From Candidatus Hydrothermarchaeum profundi (GTDB lineage: Archaea > Hydrothermarchaeota > Hydrothermarchaeia > Hydrothermarchaeales > Hydrothermarchaeaceae): a stretch of 64,000 nucleotides of DNA. The stretch is taken from the NCBI GenBank assembly GCA_002011125.2, contig MTMF02000009.1:1416989-1480988 (forward strand). The letters run 5' to 3'. The notes under the pieces are model-generated. The model searched no databases. It saw only the letters and a list, made by a program, of their open reading frames with translations, and was not told where the DNA came from. The position numbers and the translations under genes are program-made. Positions 5,092-15,616 of this stretch are shown one piece after another. The number at the start of each line of letters is the position of its first letter. Position 1 is the first letter of the stretch.

Positions 5092-6120
5092 ATGGGCAAA
5101 CTCCCTTTTGAAATGGATAGGAAAATAGTTGTTAAGTGTAGAGCATCAACTAATCCAGAGTATGGTAAAATGCCGGAAGAAAGGGGGATTAGAGAATATA
5201 TAAATTATGGAGTTATAAATCTTGATAAACCCCCGGGGCCAACCTCTCATGAAGTTGTTTCGTGGGTAAAGAAGATACTAGAGATAAAAAAAGCGGGACA
5301 CGGCGGAACACTAGATCCTAAAGTATCTGGTGTTTTACCAATCGGTCTTGAAGAGTCAACAAAAATTATACAAACGCTTCTGCCAGCCGGTAAAGAATAT
5401 GTTTGTCTAATGAGACTCCATAGTAATATAGAAGAAAATGAGGTCTCAAGAGTTTTCAAAGAGTTTGAAGGGGAAATTTATCAGAGGCCACCGGTAAAGT
5501 CGGCTGTAAAAAGAAAGCTGAGAAAAAGAACAATCTACTATATCGAGATACTTGAAGTTGATGGGAGGGACATATTATTTAAAGTTGGATGTGAGGCAGG
5601 AACTTATATAAGAAAACTTTGCCATGATATAGGGGAAGTAATAGGGGTTGGGGCACATATGGTAGAATTAAGGAGAACCAAGAGTGGGTCCTTTAAAGAT
5701 GAAGATTCAGTAAAATTACATGATGTCATGGACGCGTATTCTTTTTGGAAAGAAGATGAAAACGAAAAATTTCTCAGAAAAGTCATTTGGCCTGTAGAGA
5801 AAGCGGTAGAACATCTTCAGAAAATAATAGTCAGAGACGGCGCAGTAGATGCTATATGTCATGGAGCAAATCTCGCTGTACCCGGGATATGCGAACTTGA
5901 TGCCGATATAAAACCAGGGGATTTGGTCGCTCTTTTTACTTTAAAAAACGAGCTAATCGCGATAGGTCAAGCAAAAATGGAGACCAGAGATATCCTATTA
6001 GAAAACTCAGGAATCGCTGTTAAAACCAAGAGGGTCGTAATGAAGACAGGGACCTATCCAAGGCTATGGAAATCTAAGCAAGCCGGGGTAGCCGAGACCG
6101 GACCAAGGCGCCGGCCTTGA
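5092..6120 (+). CDS. cbf5: RNA-guided pseudouridine synthase Cbf5 (TruB family, PUA domain)
   Basis: LDKPPGPTSHEV, GHGGTLDPKVSG (catalytic D), CEAGTYIRKL, AVDAICHGA; the last 12 sense codons and the stop lie inside tRNA-Ser. Confidence 0.97.
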   Translation: MGKLPFEMDRKIVVKCRASTNPEYGKMPEERGIREYINYGVINLDKPPGPTSHEVVSWVKKILEIKKAGHGGTLDPKVSGVLPIGLEESTKIIQTLLPAGKEYVCLMRLHSNIEENEVSRVFKEFEGEIYQRPPVKSAVKRKLRKRTIYYIEILEVDGRDILFKVGCEAGTYIRKLCHDIGEVIGVGAHMVELRRTKSGSFKDEDSVKLHDVMDAYSFWKEDENEKFLRKVIWPVEKAVEHLQKIIVRDGAVDAICHGANLAVPGICELDADIKPGDLVALFTLKNELIAIGQAKMETRDILLENSGIAVKTKRVVMKTGTYPRLWKSKQAGVAETGPRRRP

Positions 6121-6169
6121 GAGCCGGTTGAGCATATGCTCAGCATGGGTTCAAATCCCATCCCCGGCG
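6082..6169 (+). tRNA. tRNA-Ser(TGA)
   Basis: Acceptor GCCGGGG/CCCCGGC, anticodon arm CCGGC-CT TGA GA-GCCGG, long variable arm TGAGCATATGCTCA, T arm ATGGG-TTCAAAT-CCCAT; CCA not encoded. Confidence 0.97.
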
Positions 6170-6229
6170 TAAATTTTATTTATTTTCAGAAAGACGACTC
6201 AAATTAGATATTTATTATGAAACTACTGG
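6156..6229 (+). repeat. 74-bp direct repeat, copy 1 (tRNA-Ser 3' end plus downstream flank)
   Basis: Ungapped 69/74 match to 6818-6891 (hand alignment). Confidence 0.93.
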
Positions 6230-6366
6230 CAAAAATTAACTGATAGGGTCTCAGGAGGATGCAACGATTTCGTATTCAAAGGATGGCTACTGTGAGAAAA
6301 GAAAGTACATCGAGAGCGAAGCATGAGAATAAAAGCTTAAATACGTTAAGATTCGAAGGGGTGGAT

Positions 6367-6582
6367 ATGGATAAGCGTAAGTTTAACGTGGTAATCGAGA
6401 AGGACGAGGACGGTTATTATATCGCCACTGTTCCTTCTTTGCCCGGCTGTCATACACAAGCTAAGAATTTGGATGAGCTAATGAAGCGCGTGAAGGAGGC
6501 TATCGAGCTCTATCTTGAGGTCGAAGAAGAAGCAGGCGATGTTGAAACCGAATTCGTAGGGGTGCAGGTAGTTGAGGCTTAG
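6367..6582 (+). CDS. hicB: HicB family antitoxin (short form, UPF0150-like)
   Basis: FNVVIEKDEDGYYIATVPSLPGCHTQAKNLDELMKRVKEAIELYLE; ATG 6367 behind GGGGTG SD. Confidence 0.92.
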   Translation: MDKRKFNVVIEKDEDGYYIATVPSLPGCHTQAKNLDELMKRVKEAIELYLEVEEEAGDVETEFVGVQVVEA

Positions 6583-6792
6583 ACCTCTTCCGCCTGAAAA
6601 GGTCATACGCGCCCTGGAGAAAGCTGGTTTTGTGCGGGTGAGGCAGAAAGGCAGTCATGTTTTTATGAGACATCCTAATGGGAGAACAACAATAGTTCCA
6701 TATCACAAGAAAGAAAATATAGAAGAGGGCTTTTGAGAAAGATAATCAACGACGCCCAGATGACAGTTGAAGAGTTCATGAAGCTGACTTAG
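6572..6792 (+). pseudogene. hicA: HicA family toxin, frameshifted
   Basis: TTG 6572 gives MRLRPLPPEKVIRALEKAGFVRVRQKGSHVFMRHPNGRTTIVPYH.., stopping at TGA 6734-6736; the typical C-terminus RGLLRKIINDAQMTVEEFMKLT* continues in another frame to TAG 6790-6792. Confidence 0.88.
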
Positions 6793-6817
6793 ATTTACCA
6801 GTAAAAATGCGCTGATG

Positions 6818-6891
6818 TCCCATCCTCGGCGCTAATTTTACTTATTTTCAGAAAGACGACTCAAATTAGATAGTTATTATGAAACTACTGG
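6818..6891 (+). repeat. 74-bp direct repeat, copy 2 (begins TCCCATCCTCGGCG, degenerate tRNA-Ser 3' end)
   Basis: 69/74 match to 6156-6229. Confidence 0.93.
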
Positions 6892-7146
6892 TAAATTAAT
6901 GGATATAACTTACGGGATAGGCAATTTTTAGATTCTATTTTCAAAAAGTTCACAATATACACCATTATATGGATAATGTTGATAACTTTTATTAAAGTTC
7001 ATTTTATACAAATTAATTTTTAATCTTCAAATTATTTGCTTTTTTACTTTAAAATTATCACGAATGAGATCTAAGTTTAAATCGTTAGCTTTTTATTCAA
7101 TTAATAAAAAATCTTTTATGAAACTTATCTGTTCGGGGGGTCCTTC

Positions 7147-7653
7147 ATGGAAATGCGTAGAAGTGAAAGAAAAATGGACAAAAAAGGAATAGATGAGGTC
7201 CTTGTTGAGACCCTTATCGGCAATTTGGCAACTACGCGTGATGGTGTTCCGTACACTATACCAATACAATTCTTATATGAACCTAAGGATAAGGCAATAT
7301 ACTTTCATGGGGCTAGTGAGGGTAGGAAGATTGATAATATTAAAGAAAATCCTAAGGTCTGTTTTAGCGCATTTCAGCTCATAGGTTTAATATGTGCAGA
7401 TAAAGCCTGCGAGTATGATCAGAGTTTCAGGAGTGTTGTCATCTTTGGCACAGCTACCTTCGTAAAAGATGCTGATAAAAAATTTGAAGTTCTAAAGGGC
7501 TTTATGGAAAAATATGCCAAAGATCATCCGGCTCCTATACCTGTGACGAGATCTATGGCTGCAAGGACTACAATTATTAAACTCAGTATTGATGAGATTA
7601 GTGGAAAACAAAATATAGAGGGCACAATACACTTTCCAGAAAAGGAAAGGTGA
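7147..7653 (+). CDS. Pyridoxamine 5'-phosphate oxidase-like FMN-binding protein (NimA-like)
   Basis: MRRSER, PYTIPIQF, IYFHGASEGRK, NPKVCF, FRSVVIFG, ISGK. Confidence 0.88.
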   Translation: MEMRRSERKMDKKGIDEVLVETLIGNLATTRDGVPYTIPIQFLYEPKDKAIYFHGASEGRKIDNIKENPKVCFSAFQLIGLICADKACEYDQSFRSVVIFGTATFVKDADKKFEVLKGFMEKYAKDHPAPIPVTRSMAARTTIIKLSIDEISGKQNIEGTIHFPEKER

Positions 7654-7686
7654 AAATTATACTGTAAATAATTTATGCTGTTGCCT

Positions 7687-8571
7687 TTAGGTTCTCATTA
7701 AACTTATTGCAGTAAGCATATCTTCAATACTTGCTTTAGCTCCACTAGCTACCTTATGACCTCCGCCCCCAAAGATCTTTGCAAGCTGAAGCACGTTAAA
7801 TCTTGTGTGGGTTCTAAGTTCGATTCTACCACTTATTCTTGAATATACTAAAATTATATCGAAAGGTGCATCTCTGTGCTCTATTAGTTTATTGGTTGCG
7901 ATGTACACAGGTATTCCCTCTGTTTGTAGAACAGCTACTTTTAGCCCACTAATATTTCTCACTTTAACCTTTCGCATTACTAGCTCTTCAAAGAAACTTA
8001 TTTTTTTCTCATACTCAGCTATTTCTCGCTTGTAATCATCTATAGCGGTAATGCCTTTTTCAGCAAGTGCCTTTGATAGCTGGAATAATTTAAAACTTAG
8101 AGACTGTTTTTTTCCTTTGTAATATGCGACTATTTTCCTCAGTTTGTCTGCTTCAGGACTCACCACATTATTAGTGTCTATTTCGTCTGCTATATTCTCA
8201 AAACCTGTAATACCAAAATACTTTGATACTAGACGACAGGCACTTTTGGTAGAACCGAGATAAAACTCTATATTATCTGGTCTTCTTACGGCTCCCCATA
8301 TGTGGTGGTCTATCCATACAACCCTTTCGCTTTTAGATGCTTCGGCTACAGATCTATTTGTACCAGAAATATCGAAGATATATAGGTTTTTAGCTTTAAT
8401 CTTCGTGAGTGTATAGGCTAAAATAGAGGGGGAGGAAAAGTATGCCCTACAGTTTCCTCTAGCTCTCATAAAAGTAGCGAGGCACAGTACACCATCGCTA
8501 TCAGCATGGGTCACAACATAGGCCATTTTAGGCGCACTGTGTATAGAAATCCTATTACTGGACTCTTCCAT
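7687..8571 (-). CDS. DHH/DHHA1 family phosphoesterase-like protein
   Basis: THADSDG, FD, WIDHH, C-terminal FGGGGHKVASG. Confidence 0.85.
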   Translation of the reverse strand: MEESSNRISIHSAPKMAYVVTHADSDGVLCLATFMRARGNCRAYFSSPSILAYTLTKIKAKNLYIFDISGTNRSVAEASKSERVVWIDHHIWGAVRRPDNIEFYLGSTKSACRLVSKYFGITGFENIADEIDTNNVVSPEADKLRKIVAYYKGKKQSLSFKLFQLSKALAEKGITAIDDYKREIAEYEKKISFFEELVMRKVKVRNISGLKVAVLQTEGIPVYIATNKLIEHRDAPFDIILVYSRISGRIELRTHTRFNVLQLAKIFGGGGHKVASGAKASIEDMLTAISLMRT

Positions 8572-8902
8572 AATTAACTCTTTTTAATAGTTTTTCAAAA
8601 ATTAAGTTTTATTCTTTAGTAAGTTCTAGCAAGAAAAAATGGTAATTTCCTAAAAATAAATTTTGCCCAGTAAACACTTTTTTTACTTGGTGAGATAATT
8701 ATCACGGTGTCGTAGCATCAGCAGTCTATATTAAGCTAAAAAAGGACAAAAAGGTTCTAGGTTCCTTTCTTTCCTATATTTTTACAAAAACATTCTGTGG
8801 GCTTTCGCAATATTTATAAATCTCGTTAAAATATTCCATTGTGCGGTTTGTAAAAACATAGATTTTATAATCGATATAAAATGATAATTTTATAAAGTGA
8901 TT

Positions 8903-8916
8903 GAAAAGATTTATAA
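8903..8916 (+). promoter_or_regulatory. BRE/TATA promoter candidate for the uS13 operon
   Basis: GAAAAG-A-TTTATAA; further TTTATAA copies at 8813, 8864 and 8889. Confidence 0.5.
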
Positions 8917-8958
8917 GTTAAAAAATATAAGGATTAGGGCTAACTCGGAGGAAAGATC

Positions 8959-9435
8959 TTGGAAAAGAAAGAAGAGGAATTTAAATATCTAGTAAGGATC
9001 GCTGGTACGGATATAAATGGGAATAAAAAGATTTCATATGGGCTTACTCGTATAAAAGGAATTGGTAATAGGATGGGAAAGGTGATATGTGAAGCGGCGG
9101 GGATTGATCCAAATAAAAAGGTAGGGTACCTTACTGAAGATGAGGTAGAGAAGTTGGATAACATAATAGAGAATGTAGGCGGTATAGGCCTTCCAGGATG
9201 GCTATTGAATAGGAGGGTTGATTATACTACTGGTAAGAATATTCATGTTATCGGGTCTGACCTCATTATGAGCCTCAGAGAGGATATAAATAGGATGAAG
9301 AAAATGAAAAGCTACAAGGGAATTAGACATGCTTTAGGATTACCCGTAAGAGGTCAGCGAACCCGTACGAGTTTTAGGAAGGGTGTCATAGTAGGGGTTA
9401 TGAGGCGAAAGATGGGGAAAGAAGCCAAAAAATAA
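8959..9435 (+). CDS. rps13: 30S ribosomal protein uS13
   Basis: FKYLVRIAGTDI, IKGIG, SYKGIRHALGLPVRGQRT; TTG start. Confidence 0.98.
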   Translation: MEKKEEEFKYLVRIAGTDINGNKKISYGLTRIKGIGNRMGKVICEAAGIDPNKKVGYLTEDEVEKLDNIIENVGGIGLPGWLLNRRVDYTTGKNIHVIGSDLIMSLREDINRMKKMKSYKGIRHALGLPVRGQRTRTSFRKGVIVGVMRRKMGKEAKK

Positions 9436-9450
9436 TAGGAAGGACTGTTT

Positions 9451-9981
9451 ATGGGAGACCCTAAAAAACGTAAGAAAAAGTATGATACACCACGGAATCC
9501 TTGGCAAATAGAAAGGCTAGAAGAAGAAAGGAAATTAATGAAGAAATATGGCCTAAGAAACAAGAGAGAGTTATGGAGGATGGAGACTCTTCTCAGGGGA
9601 TTTCGTAGGCAAGCTAGGAAATTGCTTGCCCTCGAGACTCCTCAAGCTAAAAAAGAAGAAATCCAACTTCTTGAAAAATTAAGAAGATTAAAAATGCTTA
9701 AGCGGAATTCTACCCTAGATGATGTCTTAGCATTAAAAATAGAAGATATCCTTGATAGGAGACTTCAGACCTTGGTATTTAAAAAAGGGTTGGCGAATAC
9801 ACCAAAACAAGCACGCCAGTTTATCGTTCATGGACATATCTCCATTAAGGGAAGAAAAGTTACAGCACCAAGTTATCTGGTGGGAAGAGAAGAAGAAAAC
9901 TCTATTGGGTATATTGAATCTTCACCACTAAAAAATCTCGAAGCTCAGACGAGTAGTGAGAAAGTGAAAGAGGAGGCGTAA
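9451..9981 (+). CDS. rps4: 30S ribosomal protein uS4
   Basis: [40 protein letters not shown]. Confidence 0.98.
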
Positions 9982-9983
9982 AA

Positions 9984-10379
9984 TTGGTTAAGGAAGCTAA
10001 GGCTTGGGGCGTTGCTCATATCTATTCTTCTTTCAATAATACAATTATACACATAACAGATATAACTGGATCAGAAACCATATCAAGGTGGTCTGGGGGA
10101 AGGATAGTTAGGGCCCATAGAGAAGAGAGTTCTCCATATGCAGCTATGCAGGCAGCTATGAGGGCAGCTGAAGAGGCTATGGAAAAGGGTATAGTAGGGG
10201 TCCACATTAAGGTAAGAGCACCGGGGGGAAGTGGACCGAAAACTCCGGGTCCAGGAGCCCAGCCTGCGATTAGAGCTCTTGCAAGAGCTGGTCTTAAGAT
10301 AGGTAGGATTGAAGATGCAACTCCTATCCCTCACGATGGAACTAAGAAAAAAGGAGGAAAGAGAGGTAGGAGAGTATGA
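9984..10379 (+). CDS. rps11: 30S ribosomal protein uS11
   Basis: [45 protein letters not shown]. Confidence 0.98.
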
Positions 10380-11158
10380 AAGTAGAAATACTTGAAGAAA
10401 CTGATAACTCAATGAGGTTTATATTATCAGAAGCCCACCCAAGCTTGGCTAATGCTTTAAGGAGGATAATGGTATCTGAGGTTCCAACTTTGGCGATTGA
10501 GGATGTAACGATTATTGAGAATACATCATCGCTGTATGATGAAATTATTGCTCATAGATTGGGTTTGATTCCGATTAGAACTGATCTTGATATTATGAAC
10601 TTGAGAGAGGAGTGTGTTTGCAAGGGAGAAGGATGTCCAAATTGTACATTAAAGCTTACTTTAAACTCTACGGGAAAAGATAGGATTATTACAGTGTATT
10701 CACATGATTTAAAGTCAGAAGATGAAAGATTAAAACCGATAGAGGGTATCCCAATTATAAAATTAGGAAAAGAGCAAAAACTAGTATTAGAGGCAGAAGC
10801 TATCCTTGGTAAGGGAAAAGATCATGCTAAATGGCAGCCAGCGGTAGTGGGATATAAATACTACCCAGCAATAGAGGTAAATGGGGAATGTGAAGACTGT
10901 AAAAAATGTGCAGATGTTTGCCCTGTTAACATATTAGAATCAGAAGATGGCAAAATCAAAGTAATCGATGAAATGAAATGCACTTTGTGTAAGTCTTGTG
11001 TAGAAGCATGTGAAAAAAAGATTATTAAGGTTAGAGGGGATGATAAAAAATTTATATTCACGTTAGAGAGTACTGGAGCATTAAAACCTCGAGAAATACT
11101 GAACAAAGCATGTGAAATATTAGAAGAAAAAGCCAGGGAACTGGCTACGCTATTATAG
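10376..11158 (+). CDS. rpoD: RNA polymerase subunit Rpo3 (RpoD) with ferredoxin-like Fe-S domain
   Basis: [32 protein letters not shown]; [12 protein letters not shown] and [11 protein letters not shown]. Confidence 0.97.
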
Positions 11159-11243
11159 CGGGGGTGGCCGAGTCTGGTCAAAGGCGCAAGGTTGAGGGCC
11201 TTGTTCCTAAGTGGATGCGAGGGTTCGAATCCCTTCCCCCGCA
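11158..11243 (+). tRNA. tRNA-Leu(GAG)
   Basis: GCGGGGG/CCCCCGC acceptor, CAAGG-TT GAG GG-CCTTG anticodon arm, long variable arm, GAGGG-TTCGAAT-CCCTT; CCA not encoded. Confidence 0.97.
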
Positions 11244-11256
11244 CTATGGTGATGGT

Positions 11257-11619
11257 ATGAAGAAGCCAAAATCAACAAATCCGCTAATGGTAGAACTTAT
11301 CCAAGACTTAATAGCTAGGTCGCGTGAGGAAAAATCCCTAATTTGGAGAGATATAGCTAAGAGATTATCCAGATCTGCATCCTTGCGTGCAGAAGTTAAT
11401 ATTAGTAGAATCGCCCGCTACTCTAAGAAGGGTGAGACCCTCGTGGTCCCTGGGAAGGTATTGGGATCCGGATCTATTAACCATCCCGTTAATGTAGCAG
11501 CATTAAATTTTTCTGCGAAAGCTAAGGAGAAAATAATAAAAGCAGGTGGTAAGTGCTTATCTCTAAGGAATCTAATGGAACAAAACCCCAAAGGAACAGG
11601 GGTTAAAATTATTGAGTGA
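11257..11619 (+). CDS. rpl18e: 50S ribosomal protein eL18
   Basis: KSTNP, WRDIAKRL, EVNISRI, VVPGKVLGSG; true ATG 11257 downstream of tRNA-Leu. Confidence 0.96.
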   Translation: MKKPKSTNPLMVELIQDLIARSREEKSLIWRDIAKRLSRSASLRAEVNISRIARYSKKGETLVVPGKVLGSGSINHPVNVAALNFSAKAKEKIIKAGGKCLSLRNLMEQNPKGTGVKIIE

Positions 11620-11625
11620 TGTGCT

Positions 11626-12057
11626 ATGAAGGTTATAGACGGGAAGGATCGTATATTAGGGAGACTTGCCTCTTATGTAGCTAAGGAACTCTTGAGAGGT
11701 GAAGAGATTACAATAGTTAATGCTGAAGAGTGTATTATATCAGGTTCAGAAAAAAATATACTTGAAAAATATAAAGCAAGAAGAGCGAGGAAGAGTCTTG
11801 TGAATCCTGCGAGACATGGCCCCTTCTTTCCGAGGCGCCCTGAGGGTATTGTTAGGAGAGCTGTAAGAGGAATGATCCCGTATAGGAAAGCTAAAGGACG
11901 AGAATCATTCCGCAGATTACGTGTCTATGTAGGAGTACCAAAGGACTTTGAGGGGATAGAGTTCGAGAAGATAGATGTACCTAAGGTTGATAAACTTAAG
12001 CTCCCAAAATACATAAAGGTTAAAGAGCTAAGTAAGCAGCTAGGTGCCAAATTCTGA
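11626..12057 (+). CDS. rpl13: 50S ribosomal protein uL13
   Basis: ILGRLASYVAK, IVNAE, GPFFPRRP, VRGMIP. Confidence 0.97.
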   Translation: MKVIDGKDRILGRLASYVAKELLRGEEITIVNAEECIISGSEKNILEKYKARRARKSLVNPARHGPFFPRRPEGIVRRAVRGMIPYRKAKGRESFRRLRVYVGVPKDFEGIEFEKIDVPKVDKLKLPKYIKVKELSKQLGAKF

Positions 12058-12067
12058 GGTGATATGA

Positions 12068-12466
12068 ACGAAAGTAATTCAAACATCTGGTAAGCGGAAG
12101 GCCGCTATAGCAAGGGCGACTTTGCGGGAAGGAAAAGGTAGAGTAAGGATAAATAGAACACCATTAGAGATCTTGGAGCCAGAGATGGCGAGAATGAAGA
12201 TAATGGAGCCTTTGCTCATTGCTGGAGACCTAGTAAATAAAGTCGACATTGATGTAAATGTAAGGGGTGGAGGGTTTATGGGTCAAGCAGAAGCTGCTAG
12301 AATTGCCATAAGTAGAGGACTTGTTGAGTTTAGTGGCGATGTTAAACTGAAGGAAGTTTTTTACGAGTATGATAGAACTATGATAAAAGGCGACCACAGG
12401 AGAAAAGAACCTAAGAAATACGGCGGTCCTGGAGCAAGAGCTAAAAAACAAAAATCTTACAGGTGA
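12068..12466 (+). CDS. rps9: 30S ribosomal protein uS9
   Basis: (ACG)[41 protein letters not shown]; the conserved N-terminus lies upstream of the listed TTG 12122. Confidence 0.95.
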
Positions 12467-12471
12467 GTTTA

Positions 12472-12672
12472 ATGATAATTCCTATTAGATGTTTTAGTTG
12501 TGGCGCGGTAATTGCTGATAAATATGAAAAATTTAAGAAAAGGATAAGGGACGAAGAACCGAAGAAGGTCTTAGACGATTTAGGAATAAAGAGGTATTGT
12601 TGCAGGAGGATGATACTTAGTCAAGCAGATTTCCTAGAGGAAGTAATAGAATTTGAAGTAAAGGGGCCGTAG
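12472..12672 (+). CDS. rpoN: RNA polymerase subunit Rpo10 (RpoN)
   Basis: [11 protein letters not shown]...[14 protein letters not shown]; stop TAG lies inside tRNA-Pro. Confidence 0.97.
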
Positions 12673-12737
12673 GGTAGCTTGGACCATCCTCCCAGCTTGG
12701 GGTGCTGGTGACCCGAGTTCAAATCTCGGCGGCCCCA
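12663..12737 (+). tRNA. tRNA-Pro(GGG)
   Basis: GGGGCCG/CGGCCCC acceptor, CCAGC-TT GGG GT-GCTGG, CCGAG-TTCAAAT-CTCGG; CCA not encoded. Confidence 0.97.
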
Positions 12738-12749
12738 CTTGGGGGTAAT

Positions 12750-12953
12750 ATGTTGAAACTTACTAAGTTCGAAAAAGCGCGGATAATAGGTGCGAGGGCT
12801 CTCCAGCTATCGATGGGGGCTCCTCCGCTAATAAAAGTCACAGGAGATGAGGTGACTCCCATACATATCGCCATAAAGGAGTTAGAGATGGGCGTTATTC
12901 CAATTACTGTTAAAAGGAAGATGCCTGAAAAAATGGAACTCGGAGGAGAATAA
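12750..12953 (+). CDS. rpoK: RNA polymerase subunit Rpo6 (RpoK)
   Basis: [29 protein letters not shown]; ATG 12750. Confidence 0.97.
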
Positions 12954-14200
12954 TGAATCCGACTATAATAGAGGATGTTATAGCTCGAAAGATACTGGAC
13001 AGCAGAGGAAATTGGACAATTGAAGTGGATATATTAACTAGATGTGGATTTGGGAGATGTGCAGCACCGAGTGGGGCTAGTAAAGGAGTACATGAAGTTT
13101 CCTCATATCCTGAGGGAGGTGTGGAGAAAGCTATTGTGGAGGTGGAGGAAACTATAGCCCCAGAGATGATAGGTATGGATTCTGAAGAACAGGATATAAT
13201 AGATGGGATACTGAGGGAAATAGACGGTACAGACAACTTCTCTAATATAGGGGGGAATACGGCAGTTGCTATATCATTAGCTAACGCTAAGGCTGCAGCG
13301 TCTTCATATGGGATCTCTCTTTTTCAACATTTGGGGGGATGTTTTTCCAATCAGCTTCCGTATCCTCTAGGCAATGTTATCGGTGGAGGAGCTCACTCTC
13401 AAAATTCAACGGATATCCAGGAGTTTTTAGTTTTGCCTACAGGGGCTAAGAATATAGAGGAAGCATTAAAAGTTAATTCAGAAGTACACAAAAAGACAAG
13501 GGAGATACTATCTGGTAAACATGATGGAGTAATTGGTAAAGGCGATGAAGGTGCGTGGGCTGCGAACATAACAGATATAGAGGCTCTTGATGTGTTAACT
13601 CAGGCTACGAGAAGGGTCTCTGAAGAAACTGGGGTAGAGATAAGGCTTGGCATGGATGTTGCAGCTTCTGAACTATGGGATGAAAAAAGTGGAGAATACA
13701 TTTACCAGAAAGAAAGAAAGAGTCGCACTCGCGAAGAACAGATAGATTATATGATAGACCTCATAAAGCAATACGACCTATATTATGTTGAAGATCCAAT
13801 TCAGGAAAATGATTATGAAGGGTTTGCTCAAATTAGCAGAGAAGTGAACTGCTTGATATGTGGGGATGACCTTTATGTTACAAATTATGAGAGATTAAAA
13901 AAAGGTATCAAAATGAAATCCTCTAATGCCATTATCATTAAACCTAATCAATGCGGAACATTAACTGATACATACCGAACAATAATATTGGCAAAAAGCC
14001 ATAATCTTATTCCGGTATTATCCCATCGTTCAGGGGAAACGGTTGATGATACAGTTGCACATTTGGCGGTAGCATTTAGTAGCCCTATTATAAAAACAGG
14101 GGTTGTAAGTGGAGAAAGAATAGCGAAGCTAAATGAACTTATAAGAATTAGCGAAGAGTTAGGAACAAGAGCAGAAATGGCACATTTACGGGAGGTATGA
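12953..14200 (+). CDS. eno: Enolase
   Basis: ILDSRGN, APSGAS, DIQEF, GDEG, IIKPNQ, SHRSGET. Confidence 0.97.
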   Translation: MNPTIIEDVIARKILDSRGNWTIEVDILTRCGFGRCAAPSGASKGVHEVSSYPEGGVEKAIVEVEETIAPEMIGMDSEEQDIIDGILREIDGTDNFSNIGGNTAVAISLANAKAAASSYGISLFQHLGGCFSNQLPYPLGNVIGGGAHSQNSTDIQEFLVLPTGAKNIEEALKVNSEVHKKTREILSGKHDGVIGKGDEGAWAANITDIEALDVLTQATRRVSEETGVEIRLGMDVAASELWDEKSGEYIYQKERKSRTREEQIDYMIDLIKQYDLYYVEDPIQENDYEGFAQISREVNCLICGDDLYVTNYERLKKGIKMKSSNAIIIKPNQCGTLTDTYRTIILAKSHNLIPVLSHRSGETVDDTVAHLAVAFSSPIIKTGVVSGERIAKLNELIRISEELGTRAEMAHLREV

Positions 14201-14203
14201 AGC

Positions 14204-14788
14204 GTGGAAGAACTTTTAACTACCCTGGATAATTATCTTGCCGCAGGTACTCATATTGGTACTCAGCAGAAGAATGCGGATATGAAGCCATATATTTATA
14301 GAGTTCGGGCTGATGGACTCTATGTTCTTGACGTTAAAAAATCTGATGAACGAATTAGAATTGCAGCAAAGTTTCTCTCAAAGTATCCTGCAGATAAAAT
14401 ACTTGTAGTTTCACGGAGGCAGTATGGTCAAAAACCGGTAGAAGAGTTTGCGAGGCTTACAGGTGCGGTAGCTGTTACAGGCAGGTTTATCCCCGGTACT
14501 TTAACGAATCCCGCTCTGGATAGTTTTATTGAACCCGAAGTACTTATAGTAACAGATCCCAGAGGAGATGAGCAAGCATTAAAAGAAGCGAGTGATATCG
14601 GAATACCTGTTGTCGCTTTGTGCGATACTGATAATTCAGTTTCGTTTGTGGATATTGTAATACCTACTAATAATAAAGGTAAAAAAGCTTTAGCAATAAT
14701 ATATTGGCTACTGGCTAGAGAGATTCTTAAAAATAGAGGAGAATTGCCCGAGGATTTTCCTTCATTAGAAGAGTTTGGGGAAGGATAA
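14204..14788 (+). CDS. rps2: 30S ribosomal protein uS2
   Basis: [32 protein letters not shown]. Confidence 0.98.
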
Positions 14789-15616
14789 ATGAGGACCCCC
14801 TACGTGGCTGGACAGTTTTATCCGGCAGGAAAAGTTGAACTAAAAAGAGAGATAGAGAAATGTTTTTTAAGTCCACTTGGGCCGGGAAAATTGCCAGAAA
14901 AAGAAGGTAGAAATAAGGATATAAAAGGATGCGTAGTACCTCACGCAGGATATATGTACTCAGGACCTGTAGCTGCCCATGTTTATTATGCGTTATCAAC
15001 TCAAATAAAACCTGAGACTATAGTAATTATTTGCCCTAATCATACAGGGAGAGGTAGCGCGGCTGCACTTTCAAAGGAGGATTGGGAAACTCCGCTTGGA
15101 ATAGTTGATACAGATAAGACTATTGTAGACTTACTATGGAAAAAATGCGATATAATGGATTTAAATGAAGATGCGCATGTCTTTGAACATTCTCTCGAGG
15201 TGCAACTTCCATTTTTACAATACATATATGGGGACTTTACCTTTGTTCCGATATGTTTAGGGTTGCAAGATCTTGATACTGCTCACGAAGTGGCTAGTTG
15301 CTTATTAAACATAAAAAAAGAAATGATAGTTATTGCTAGTAGTGACTTCACGCATTATGAGACACACAGGGAGGCTGAGAGGAAAGATAAACATGCAATC
15401 TCATACATCTTAGATCTAAATGAGAAAGGGTTTATAAAGAACGTATATGAAAATGATCTTTCTATTTGTGGGTACGGACCAATAGCTACATGTATATCCT
15501 TTGTAAAGAAAAGAGGGGCAAATAGAGGAGAACTCCTAAAATACGCTACGAGTGGAAATGTCACTGGAGACTTTGGGCAAGTAGTTGGGTATGCTGGCAT
15601 AATTTTTAGAGGTTAA
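14789..15616 (+). CDS. MEMO1 family protein (AmmeMemoRadiSam system protein B)
   Basis: VAGQFYP, PHAGYMYSG, PNHTG, EHSLEVQLPF, ASSDFTHY, CGYGP. Confidence 0.95.
   Translation: MRTPYVAGQFYPAGKVELKREIEKCFLSPLGPGKLPEKEGRNKDIKGCVVPHAGYMYSGPVAAHVYYALSTQIKPETIVIICPNHTGRGSAAALSKEDWETPLGIVDTDKTIVDLLWKKCDIMDLNEDAHVFEHSLEVQLPFLQYIYGDFTFVPICLGLQDLDTAHEVASCLLNIKKEMIVIASSDFTHYETHREAERKDKHAISYILDLNEKGFIKNVYENDLSICGYGPIATCISFVKKRGANRGELLKYATSGNVTGDFGQVVGYAGIIFRG

Follow-up and report, generated by a model that had tools for sequence, protein, structure and literature searches.

How does a protein-coding message come to its end when its stop codon lies within the tRNA gene that follows? The question is raised by a stretch of 64,000 nucleotides (nt) from the archaeon Candidatus Hydrothermarchaeum profundi (contig MTMF02000009.1, positions 1,416,989 to 1,480,988 of the forward strand), here called the window, whose positions are counted from its first letter. 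In this window, the genes cbf5, rpoD and rpoN, which encode a pseudouridine synthase and subunits D and N of RNA polymerase, have their stop codons inside the genes for tRNA-Ser, tRNA-Leu and tRNA-Pro, respectively. The genome is a 2.19-Mb draft of 19 contigs with about 39% G+C and a completeness of 97.65%. The overlaps are probably eroded spacers in an operon that is punctuated by tRNA genes, and excision of the tRNAs would cost the three upstream messages their complete stop codons.

Stop codons within three tRNA genes

All gene calls in the window are based on open reading frames (ORFs). The cbf5 coding sequence (5092-6120, + strand; 342 amino acids), with the Pfam domains TruB_N, TruB_C_2, PUA and DKCLD, runs into the gene for tRNA-Ser(UGA) (6082-6169, + strand), which was found by ARAGORN and reaches 57.4 bits with Infernal. 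Its stop codon TGA (6118-6120) is the UGA anticodon of the tRNA, and the overlap of 39 nt holds the last 13 codons of cbf5 including the stop; the tail of the protein at this overlap reads ..AGVAETGPRRRP. A T-rich tract that resembles an archaeal terminator lies 3' of tRNA-Ser. The rpoD coding sequence (10376-11158, + strand; 260 amino acids; Pfam RNA_pol_L, RNA_pol_A_bac and Fer4) ends with TAG at 11156-11158, the G of which is also G1 of the operon-internal tRNA-Leu(GAG) (11158-11243, + strand; 54.2 bits with Infernal, end at 11244 with ARAGORN), an overlap of 1 nt. The rpoN coding sequence (12472-12672, + strand, with a frame that is open also from 12463; 66 amino acids; Pfam RNA_pol_N) overlaps tRNA-Pro(GGG) (12663-12737, + strand; 51.4 bits with Infernal, end at 12738 with ARAGORN), which is likewise operon-internal, by 10 nt. 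Here the stop codon TAG (12670-12672) corresponds to U8-A9-G10 of the tRNA, and the protein tail reads ..EVKGP.

By the Infernal model Rfam RF00005 (gathering score 29), all three tRNAs are full-length and canonical. ARAGORN finds no other tRNA in the window; all three are on the + strand, and each of their anticodons (tga, gag and ggg) occurs once among the 45 tRNAs that it reports for the genome, which indicates that they are working genes and not relics. The conserved Pfam domains of the three proteins end ahead of the overlaps, at residue 316 of 342 in Cbf5 (PUA), 252 of 260 in RpoD and 58 of 66 in RpoN (RNA_pol_N, residues 2-58). The overlaps span 39, 1 and 10 nt of tRNAs of 75-88 nt, and in the window no frame covers a whole tRNA.

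All three stop codons include position 1 of the tRNA or fall beyond it. A cut at position 1 would therefore leave the cbf5, rpoD and rpoN mRNAs without a complete stop codon. This consequence had been drawn in an earlier, sequence-only reading of the window, and it holds on the sequence; the coordinates, the tail peptides and the prediction that a cut rpoD message would end with ..UUA UA were correct as well, as judged by ARAGORN, Infernal, the ORF calls and the sequence itself.

Overlaps elsewhere in the genome

For each tRNA of the genome, the longest same-strand ORF reaching to within 60 nt upstream was tabulated. The stop codon of such a long ORF overlaps 5 of the 45 tRNAs, and seven more (Leu-caa, Val-tac, Gly-gcc, Ala-ggc, Val-gac, Glu-ctc and Val-cac) sit 1-12 nt behind one. 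Outside the window, tRNA-Gly(tcc) is overlapped by 10 nt by the gene for a 408-amino-acid ArgZ-like/saccharopine-dehydrogenase-like protein, with TAG at tRNA positions 8-10, and tRNA-Arg(tct) is overlapped by 15 nt by the gene for a 219-amino-acid DUF434/DUF5616 protein. Pfam supports eight of the nine non-window ORFs that abut or overlap tRNAs as real proteins; the ORF of 131 amino acids before Val-gac is without a Pfam match. The stop codon is TAG in four of the five overlapped genes.

The three cases of the window had been taken to suggest a rule rather than an accident. Overlap does recur in the genome, but it is not universal, and in relatives rpoD and tRNA-Leu may overlap by 1 nt or stand up to 42 nt apart. 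The three-of-three pattern reflects one conserved gene cluster and not three independent events.

TAG has a possible second use in this genome. A PylS gene (294.5 bits) adjoins a predicted tRNA-Pyl outside the window (contig C9, 1320440-1321652), McrA was not found in the 97.65%-complete genome, and TAG still closes 283 of the 1502 ORFs that are 200 codons or longer (18.8%). The genome seems to be that of a non-methanogen which has a pyrrolysine system and uses TAG in the ordinary way.

Junctions in related genomes

The rpoD gene was located in 40 related genomes, and 33 loci were analysed; being relatives, they are non-independent samples. In metagenome-assembled genomes of the same order, the junction of rpoN and tRNA-Pro was found in 15 loci, with an overlap in 13 and an overlap of exactly 10 nt in 10 (L004, L006, L007, L009, L010, L012, L016, L027, L030 and L033; in L016, where the contig ends at the locus, the 10 nt were read by eye off the junction sequence). 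The other states are overlaps of 1 nt (L022 and L023) and 15 nt (L024) and gaps (L015 and L026). With the window included, the 10-nt state occurs in six genera of four families.

The other two junctions are looser. Among the 25 loci in which tRNA-Leu stands directly behind rpoD (L001-L003, L021 and L025 are thereby left out), one shows a 1-nt overlap (L023) and four are directly abutting, while the others have a gap of 2-42 nt. At the junction of cbf5 and tRNA-Ser, found in four loci, the overlap is 10 nt in one locus and 1 nt in two, and the fourth has a 13-nt gap. A stop codon formed by TA and G1 of the tRNA is seen for cbf5 in L008 and L014, for rpoN in L022, and for both rpoD and rpoN in L023.

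In L001-L003, which belong to the same family as the window but to another genus, the distance between rpoD and tRNA-Leu is about 1 kb in L001 and 80 nt in L002, and a T-rich motif about 40 nt before tRNA-Leu is common to the three loci. Judging from these sequences, the rpoD/tRNA-Leu junction is broken in the nearest sampled genus.

A wider scan for RpoN on named genome contigs, some of which come from the same genomes as the 33 loci, so that the two counts are not independent, gave 80 loci, 20 of them with tRNA-Pro at most 83 nt downstream. These 20 are all of euryarchaeal type (Thermoplasmata/Methanomassiliicoccales, Halobacteria, Methanomicrobia, Methanophagales and Hydrothermarchaeales), and none of the loci from Thermoprotei, Bathyarchaeia, Nitrososphaeria or Asgard archaea among the 80 has tRNA-Pro within that distance behind rpoN. 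In six of these 20 loci the two genes overlap. The overlap is 15 nt in one locus and 10 nt in the other five, among them a Halobacteria contig that carries a different tRNA-Pro. The two gene pairs outside the window behave similarly: the ArgZ-like gene adjoins tRNA-Gly in 12 of 20 relatives, with two overlaps of 10 nt and one zero gap, and the DUF434 gene lies at most 188 nt from tRNA-Arg in 6 of 18, with overlaps of 10, 10 and 40 nt.

Over the five gene-tRNA pairs and many genomes, the stop codons fall at tRNA positions 1, 10, 15, 39 or 40. A stop at position 1 is in the same frame as one at position 10, and most of these tRNAs have TAG at U8-A9-G10. The acceptor stem GGGGCCG is found in most tRNA-Pro genes of the relatives, in 12 of 13 overlapped ones and 5 of 14 behind a gap, which argues that the tRNA sequence dictates the protein tail and not the reverse.

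Promoter motifs and probable co-transcription

Whether the stop codons are actually lost depends on whether the tRNAs are cut from the messages of the genes in front of them. Of the 45 tRNAs, 33 do not abut a gene, and an obvious A-rich, TATA-like motif lies upstream of those that stand alone. By expectation-maximisation on 30 stand-alone tRNAs, a promoter motif with a consensus close to AAAATTTTAxATxA was derived, resembling a B recognition element (BRE) with a TATA box; tRNA-Ala(tgc), which lies beside 16S rRNA sequence, and tRNA-Asp(gtc) and tRNA-Ser(gct), which are G+C-rich upstream, were left out of the comparison. In most cases the motif begins 32-44 nt ahead of position 1 of the tRNA, which would place the TATA core about 30 nt upstream and leave very short 5' leaders of a few nucleotides. 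As a null set, the 3' ends of 1176 ORFs with 250 codons or more were scored, with a 90th percentile of 6.3 bits, and the circularity of scoring the motif on its own training tRNAs was met with a leave-one-out run.

The median score is 10.1 bits for the stand-alone tRNAs (7.1 bits with leave-one-out) and -0.4 bits for the 12 tRNAs that abut a coding sequence. The abutting tRNAs score below the stand-alone set (p = 7e-6; leave-one-out p = 2.4e-4) and are indistinguishable from the null coding 3' ends (Mann-Whitney p = 0.80). Above the 90th percentile of the null set lie 17 of the 30 stand-alone tRNAs and none of the 12 abutting ones. In the window, the scores are -10.7 bits before tRNA-Ser, 4.6 bits before tRNA-Leu (at -44) and -6.3 bits before tRNA-Pro, and 15% of the null windows score as high as the match before tRNA-Leu. 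No embedded tRNA-Leu, tRNA-Pro or tRNA-Ser of the relatives is preceded by a match of more than 6.9 bits.

Strong matches are present at the head of the operon. Two tandem BRE/TATA-like matches of 11.5 and 11.9 bits (at 8884 and 8905, together 8884-8918, + strand) precede the gene for ribosomal protein S13, which starts at 8959, and form the likely promoter of the unit from S13 to S2. From 8919 to 14858, the window scan shows no + strand match of at least 8.5 bits; the next is at 14859.

The genes behind the tRNAs lead to the same view. Both tRNA-Leu and tRNA-Pro are tightly flanked on both sides, whereas tRNA-Ser is terminal. The L18e coding sequence (ORF 11164-11619, + strand) has an in-frame ATG at 11257, preceded by a Shine-Dalgarno-like GGTGAT at 11248-11253, and rpoK (ORF 12702-12953, + strand) has one at 12750, preceded by a Shine-Dalgarno-like GGGGGT at 12741-12746. 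These start codons lie 13 and 12 nt past the 3' ends of their tRNAs, a spacing which implies that the L18e and rpoK transcripts begin in the tRNA or upstream of it, and there is no promoter-like site between tRNA-Leu and L18e or between tRNA-Pro and rpoK. Because no promoter motif precedes the tRNAs and L18e and rpoK start so close behind them, with no room for a promoter before L18e, the three tRNAs are likely to be co-transcribed with their upstream genes. The escape that the sequence-only reading had left itself, namely that each tRNA has its own promoter and the mRNAs are never cleaved, finds no support in scores that are no better than those of coding 3' ends.

The genome also contains the candidate genes for processing. 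Archaeal RNase P RNA is present (241.9 bits), as are genes for RNase Z (358.4 bits), for the exosome subunit Rrp41 (381.6 bits, with a weaker match beside it) and for Pelota (342.7 bits). In Nanoarchaeum, no RNase P is known and tRNA promoters lie at a fixed distance from tRNA position 1. Leaderless tRNA transcription of this type was rejected for the window, given the RNase P RNA and the lack of a promoter motif before the three tRNAs.

Spacer erosion as the probable origin of the overlaps

The explanation favoured here, with a probability of about 0.58, is that the overlaps are eroded spacers in a tRNA-punctuated operon whose messages are translated before they are cleaved and then decay fast. 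The three tRNA genes would belong to two old euryarchaeal transcription units, one ending with cmk-L14e-cbf5-tRNA-Ser and the other running from S13 through rpoD-tRNA-Leu and rpoN-tRNA-Pro-rpoK-eno to S2, and the spacers between coding sequences and tRNAs would have been eroded in this lineage to zero or less. The upstream frame would then run on to the first in-frame stop codon of the tRNA. For rpoD, this is TA completed by G1; for rpoN, the near-universal TAG of U8-A9-G10; and for cbf5, the UGA anticodon. The residues that the overlap encodes would be passengers, set by the sequence of the tRNA. The junction spacing drifts among relatives and the stops are the first ones in frame, and this is the pattern that erosion of spacers would give.

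On this explanation, the promoterless tRNAs would be freed from the mRNA transcript by RNase P at the 5' end and by RNase Z at the 3' end. The transcript would be translated while intact, largely co-transcriptionally. Folding and excision of the tRNA would leave an upstream piece without a stop codon and without a protected 3' end, which would be removed fast by 3'-to-5' decay, and a ribosome stuck at the end could be freed by Pelota. The overlap would be tolerable if the cut message is short-lived anyway, and it would represent a by-product of genome compaction rather than a dedicated recoding device. Two mechanisms that had been proposed earlier, mutual exclusion of translation and tRNA maturation and non-stop rescue by Pelota at cut messages, are plausible and would fit all the observations.

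Several points weigh against spacer erosion with early translation. That the genes are co-transcribed, that translation comes before cleavage and that the cut mRNA decays fast is in each case inferred from the sequence, and the decay step follows a bacterial precedent. The motif scan detects only promoters like those of the stand-alone tRNAs, and the weak match of 4.6 bits before tRNA-Leu, being at the right distance, leaves room for an internal start there. Single point mutations could make an earlier stop codon, yet the exact 10-nt overlap of rpoN and tRNA-Pro persists, a possible sign that it is selected for and not merely tolerated. In addition, the pyrrolysine system together with the TAG codons at four of the five overlapped stops may make termination at these sites less simple than assumed.

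Alternative explanations

Selection for the overlap is most readily pictured as an attenuator. Excision of the tRNA would turn the rpoD, rpoN or cbf5 cistron into a stop-less message exposed to the exosome, keeping the polymerase subunits below the ribosomal proteins and tying tRNA output to transcription of the operon. Both operon-internal tRNAs of the window sit behind a gene for an RNA polymerase subunit, the 10-nt overlap at rpoN is maintained over the six genera, and in Methanococcus maripaludis, mixed operons of this kind need polymerase subunits below ribosomal proteins, and raising them slows growth (PMC10450193). However, the rpoD and cbf5 junctions vary freely, from overlap to gaps of up to 42 nt, and many euryarchaeal lineages hold rpoN and tRNA-Pro 5-83 nt apart, which indicates that the overlap as such is not required. 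Moreover, the unrelated genes for the ArgZ-like enzyme and the DUF434 protein overlap tRNAs in the same way. An attenuator is considered unlikely. The same low standing is given to its fullest form, a maintained post-transcriptional switch in which excision yields non-stop mRNA, Pelota and the exosome cap the polymerase subunits, and ribosome traffic gates tRNA maturation. If this is true, a free-living archaeon would have its own counterpart of the tRNA punctuation of mitochondria, with built-in feedback between translation and tRNA supply.

Somewhat less credit is given to hidden start sites, by which each tRNA would be transcribed mainly from within the 3' end of the upstream coding sequence, so that read-through mRNAs would rarely be cut and stops seldom lost. 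Start sites inside coding sequences are common in archaea, with 644 listed for Thermococcus kodakarensis (PMC4247193); likewise, a study of Haloferax volcanii gives 1153 internal sites and a nearby start site for 39 of 52 tRNAs (PMC4983044). The match at -44 would suit this explanation for tRNA-Leu, but the scores before tRNA-Ser and tRNA-Pro are -10.7 and -6.3 bits, and none of the 12 abutting tRNAs rises above the 90th percentile of the null set. L18e and rpoK would still need transcripts that pass through the tRNAs, and a folded pre-tRNA in any read-through transcript remains a substrate of RNase P.

Completion of the stop codon in the mitochondrial manner, by non-templated A-rich tails that the exosome would add after the cut by RNase P, is very improbable. 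The arithmetic that led to this proposal works for rpoD, since the cut message is one A short of UAA, and exosome genes are present; the TA|G1 form also recurs in L008, L014, L022 and L023. It fails for the others: cut at position 1, cbf5 ends with ..AAG CAA, a complete codon, and rpoN with ..GUA AA, and in both cases added A's would give Lys codons. The genes upstream of tRNA-Gly(tcc) and tRNA-Arg(tct) cannot be completed either, which leaves one of five overlapped genes. The 10-nt overlap, the commonest state in relatives, is not completable, and A-tailing was accordingly rejected as a general rule on codon arithmetic. The tails that archaeal exosomes add are heteropolymeric and destine RNA for decay, which also counts against it.

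The least probable explanation is an assembly indel or a misplaced tRNA boundary, for which the 19-contig draft, the uniqueness of the 39-nt cbf5 overlap among the loci compared and a TAA at 6075-6077 that a one-base change would bring into the cbf5 frame could be cited; it was rejected for rpoN and rpoD, whose overlaps recur in other assemblies (the rpoN overlap in many separate ones, which rules out an assembly error at that junction), and less completely for the 39-nt case of cbf5, although ARAGORN and Infernal agree on the tRNA 5' ends, the homology of Cbf5 to its relatives reaches within a few residues of the tRNA, and cbf5 overlaps tRNA-Ser in three of four relatives too.

Comparison with known systems

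Co-transcripts of mRNA and tRNA, a tRNA nested in a bacterial reading frame and mitochondrial punctuation are already known. The closest parallel to the fate proposed here is secG-leuU of Escherichia coli, where a protein gene and a downstream tRNA gene share one transcript, as is deduced for the window from sequence (PMC2241853). There, a single cut by RNase P parts the mRNA from the tRNA, creating both the 5' end of the tRNA and the 3' end of the mRNA, and the cut mRNA is lost exonucleolytically within seconds, with a half-life of less than 30 s for secG (PMC2241853). The tRNA of that pair, like tRNA-Leu here, reads CUC/CUU, but there a spacer of 14 nt spares the secG stop codon, which in the window lies inside the tRNA. 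The hosts differ as well, a bacterium with RNase E and PNPase in the one case and an archaeon with an exosome in the other, where the processing is predicted from genes.

In animal mitochondria, the tRNA punctuation model holds that cuts at tRNAs define the ends of the mRNAs, which can carry incomplete stop codons. As there, the tRNAs of the window abut or overlap coding sequences without a spacer, cuts by RNase P and RNase Z would set the ends of the mRNAs, and rpoD has the TA| form. Unlike there, four of the five overlapped stops could not be completed with A's, the host is a free-living archaeon in which 33 tRNAs do not abut a gene, and no sign of stabilising polyadenylation is seen.

In Alphaproteobacteria, the gene for tRNA-Sec is nested in selB, and folding and processing of the tRNA were proposed to repress the full-length protein (PMC8124441). 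There too, the frame enters a functional tRNA gene and gains a tRNA-encoded C-terminal extension (PMC8124441). In that case the frame contains the whole tRNA and the pair is functionally linked, in contrast to overlaps of 1-39 nt with no evident link in the window. The mixed operon of M. maripaludis is of the same kind as the second unit here, with the order S9-rpoN-rpoK, but its tuning relies on internal oligo-T terminators that precede the rpo genes, and tRNAs do not figure in the passages on this operon (PMC10450193). No T-run is seen between S9 and rpoN in the window sequence. In T. kodakarensis, tRNA-Lys lies in the leader of TK0306 and is co-transcribed with the mRNA (PMC4247193), and tRNA-Gly(TCC) of H. 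volcanii is suspected to be operon-borne (PMC4983044). These cases differ from the present one in that the tRNA is in a 5' leader or merely suspected in an operon, and an overlap with a stop codon is not described in those texts.

A search of full-text literature, with most subscription journals and the gene cluster papers of the 1990s outside its reach, returned no account of stop codons inside tRNAs in archaeal operons for ribosomal proteins and polymerase subunits, and in the same literature no description of the conserved 10-nt overlap of rpoN and tRNA-Pro was found. If, as the sequence suggests, the tRNAs are released by cleavage of the operon transcript, this archaeal order would routinely make stop-less messages for essential genes. 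Such messages would be natural substrates for two poorly studied archaeal processes, non-stop rescue by Pelota and 3' decay by the exosome, and tRNA punctuation with overlapping stops would extend beyond organelles. The junctions also provide a simple rule for where a frame ends, namely at TA plus G1, at the TAG of U8-A9-G10, or at an anticodon with the sequence of a stop codon. Some annotation pipelines forbid an overlap of coding sequence and tRNA, and small essential genes like rpoN could therefore be truncated or dropped in genomes of this clade.

Gene order and minor observations

The first unit of the window has the order S5-L30-L15-SecY-Adk..Cmk-L14e-Cbf5-tRNA-Ser, and the second the order S13-S4-S11-RpoD-tRNA-Leu-L18e-L13-S9-RpoN-tRNA-Pro-RpoK-enolase-S2; the names of neighbouring genes without a Pfam test were read from their translations. 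In the ORF list, overlaps of 4 nt are also seen between adjacent coding sequences of the window. Three ORFs (6259-6582, + strand; 7147-7653, + strand; 7687-8571, - strand) separate tRNA-Ser from the S13 promoter, and the distance from tRNA-Ser to tRNA-Leu is 5.1 kb, compared with about 2.3 kb in several relatives. The three ORFs (6259-8571) look like an insertion.

A 141-amino-acid ORF on contig C9 (503096-503521) runs through the entire tRNA-Asp(gtc). It has no Pfam match, was treated as probably spurious and was not counted as an overlap. Upstream of both tRNA-Asp(gtc) and tRNA-Ser(gct), the G+C content is unusually high, which hints at a further structured RNA close by.

With its intron search switched off, ARAGORN found the Ser anticodons tga, cga and gct, and gga is not among the 45 tRNAs of the genome; two tRNA-Leu(cag) are of odd length (96 and 88 nt). 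Some tRNAs of the genome may contain introns or be absent from the draft. On contig C9, tRNA-Thr(cgt) (1304489-1304562), tRNA-Cys(gca) (158068-158138) and tRNA-Glu(ctc) (1796757-1796831) have trailers of about 35 nt that are alike, and behind two of the three a long ORF (255 and 397 amino acids) begins at +59. These trailers may be integration-site repeats with integrase genes.

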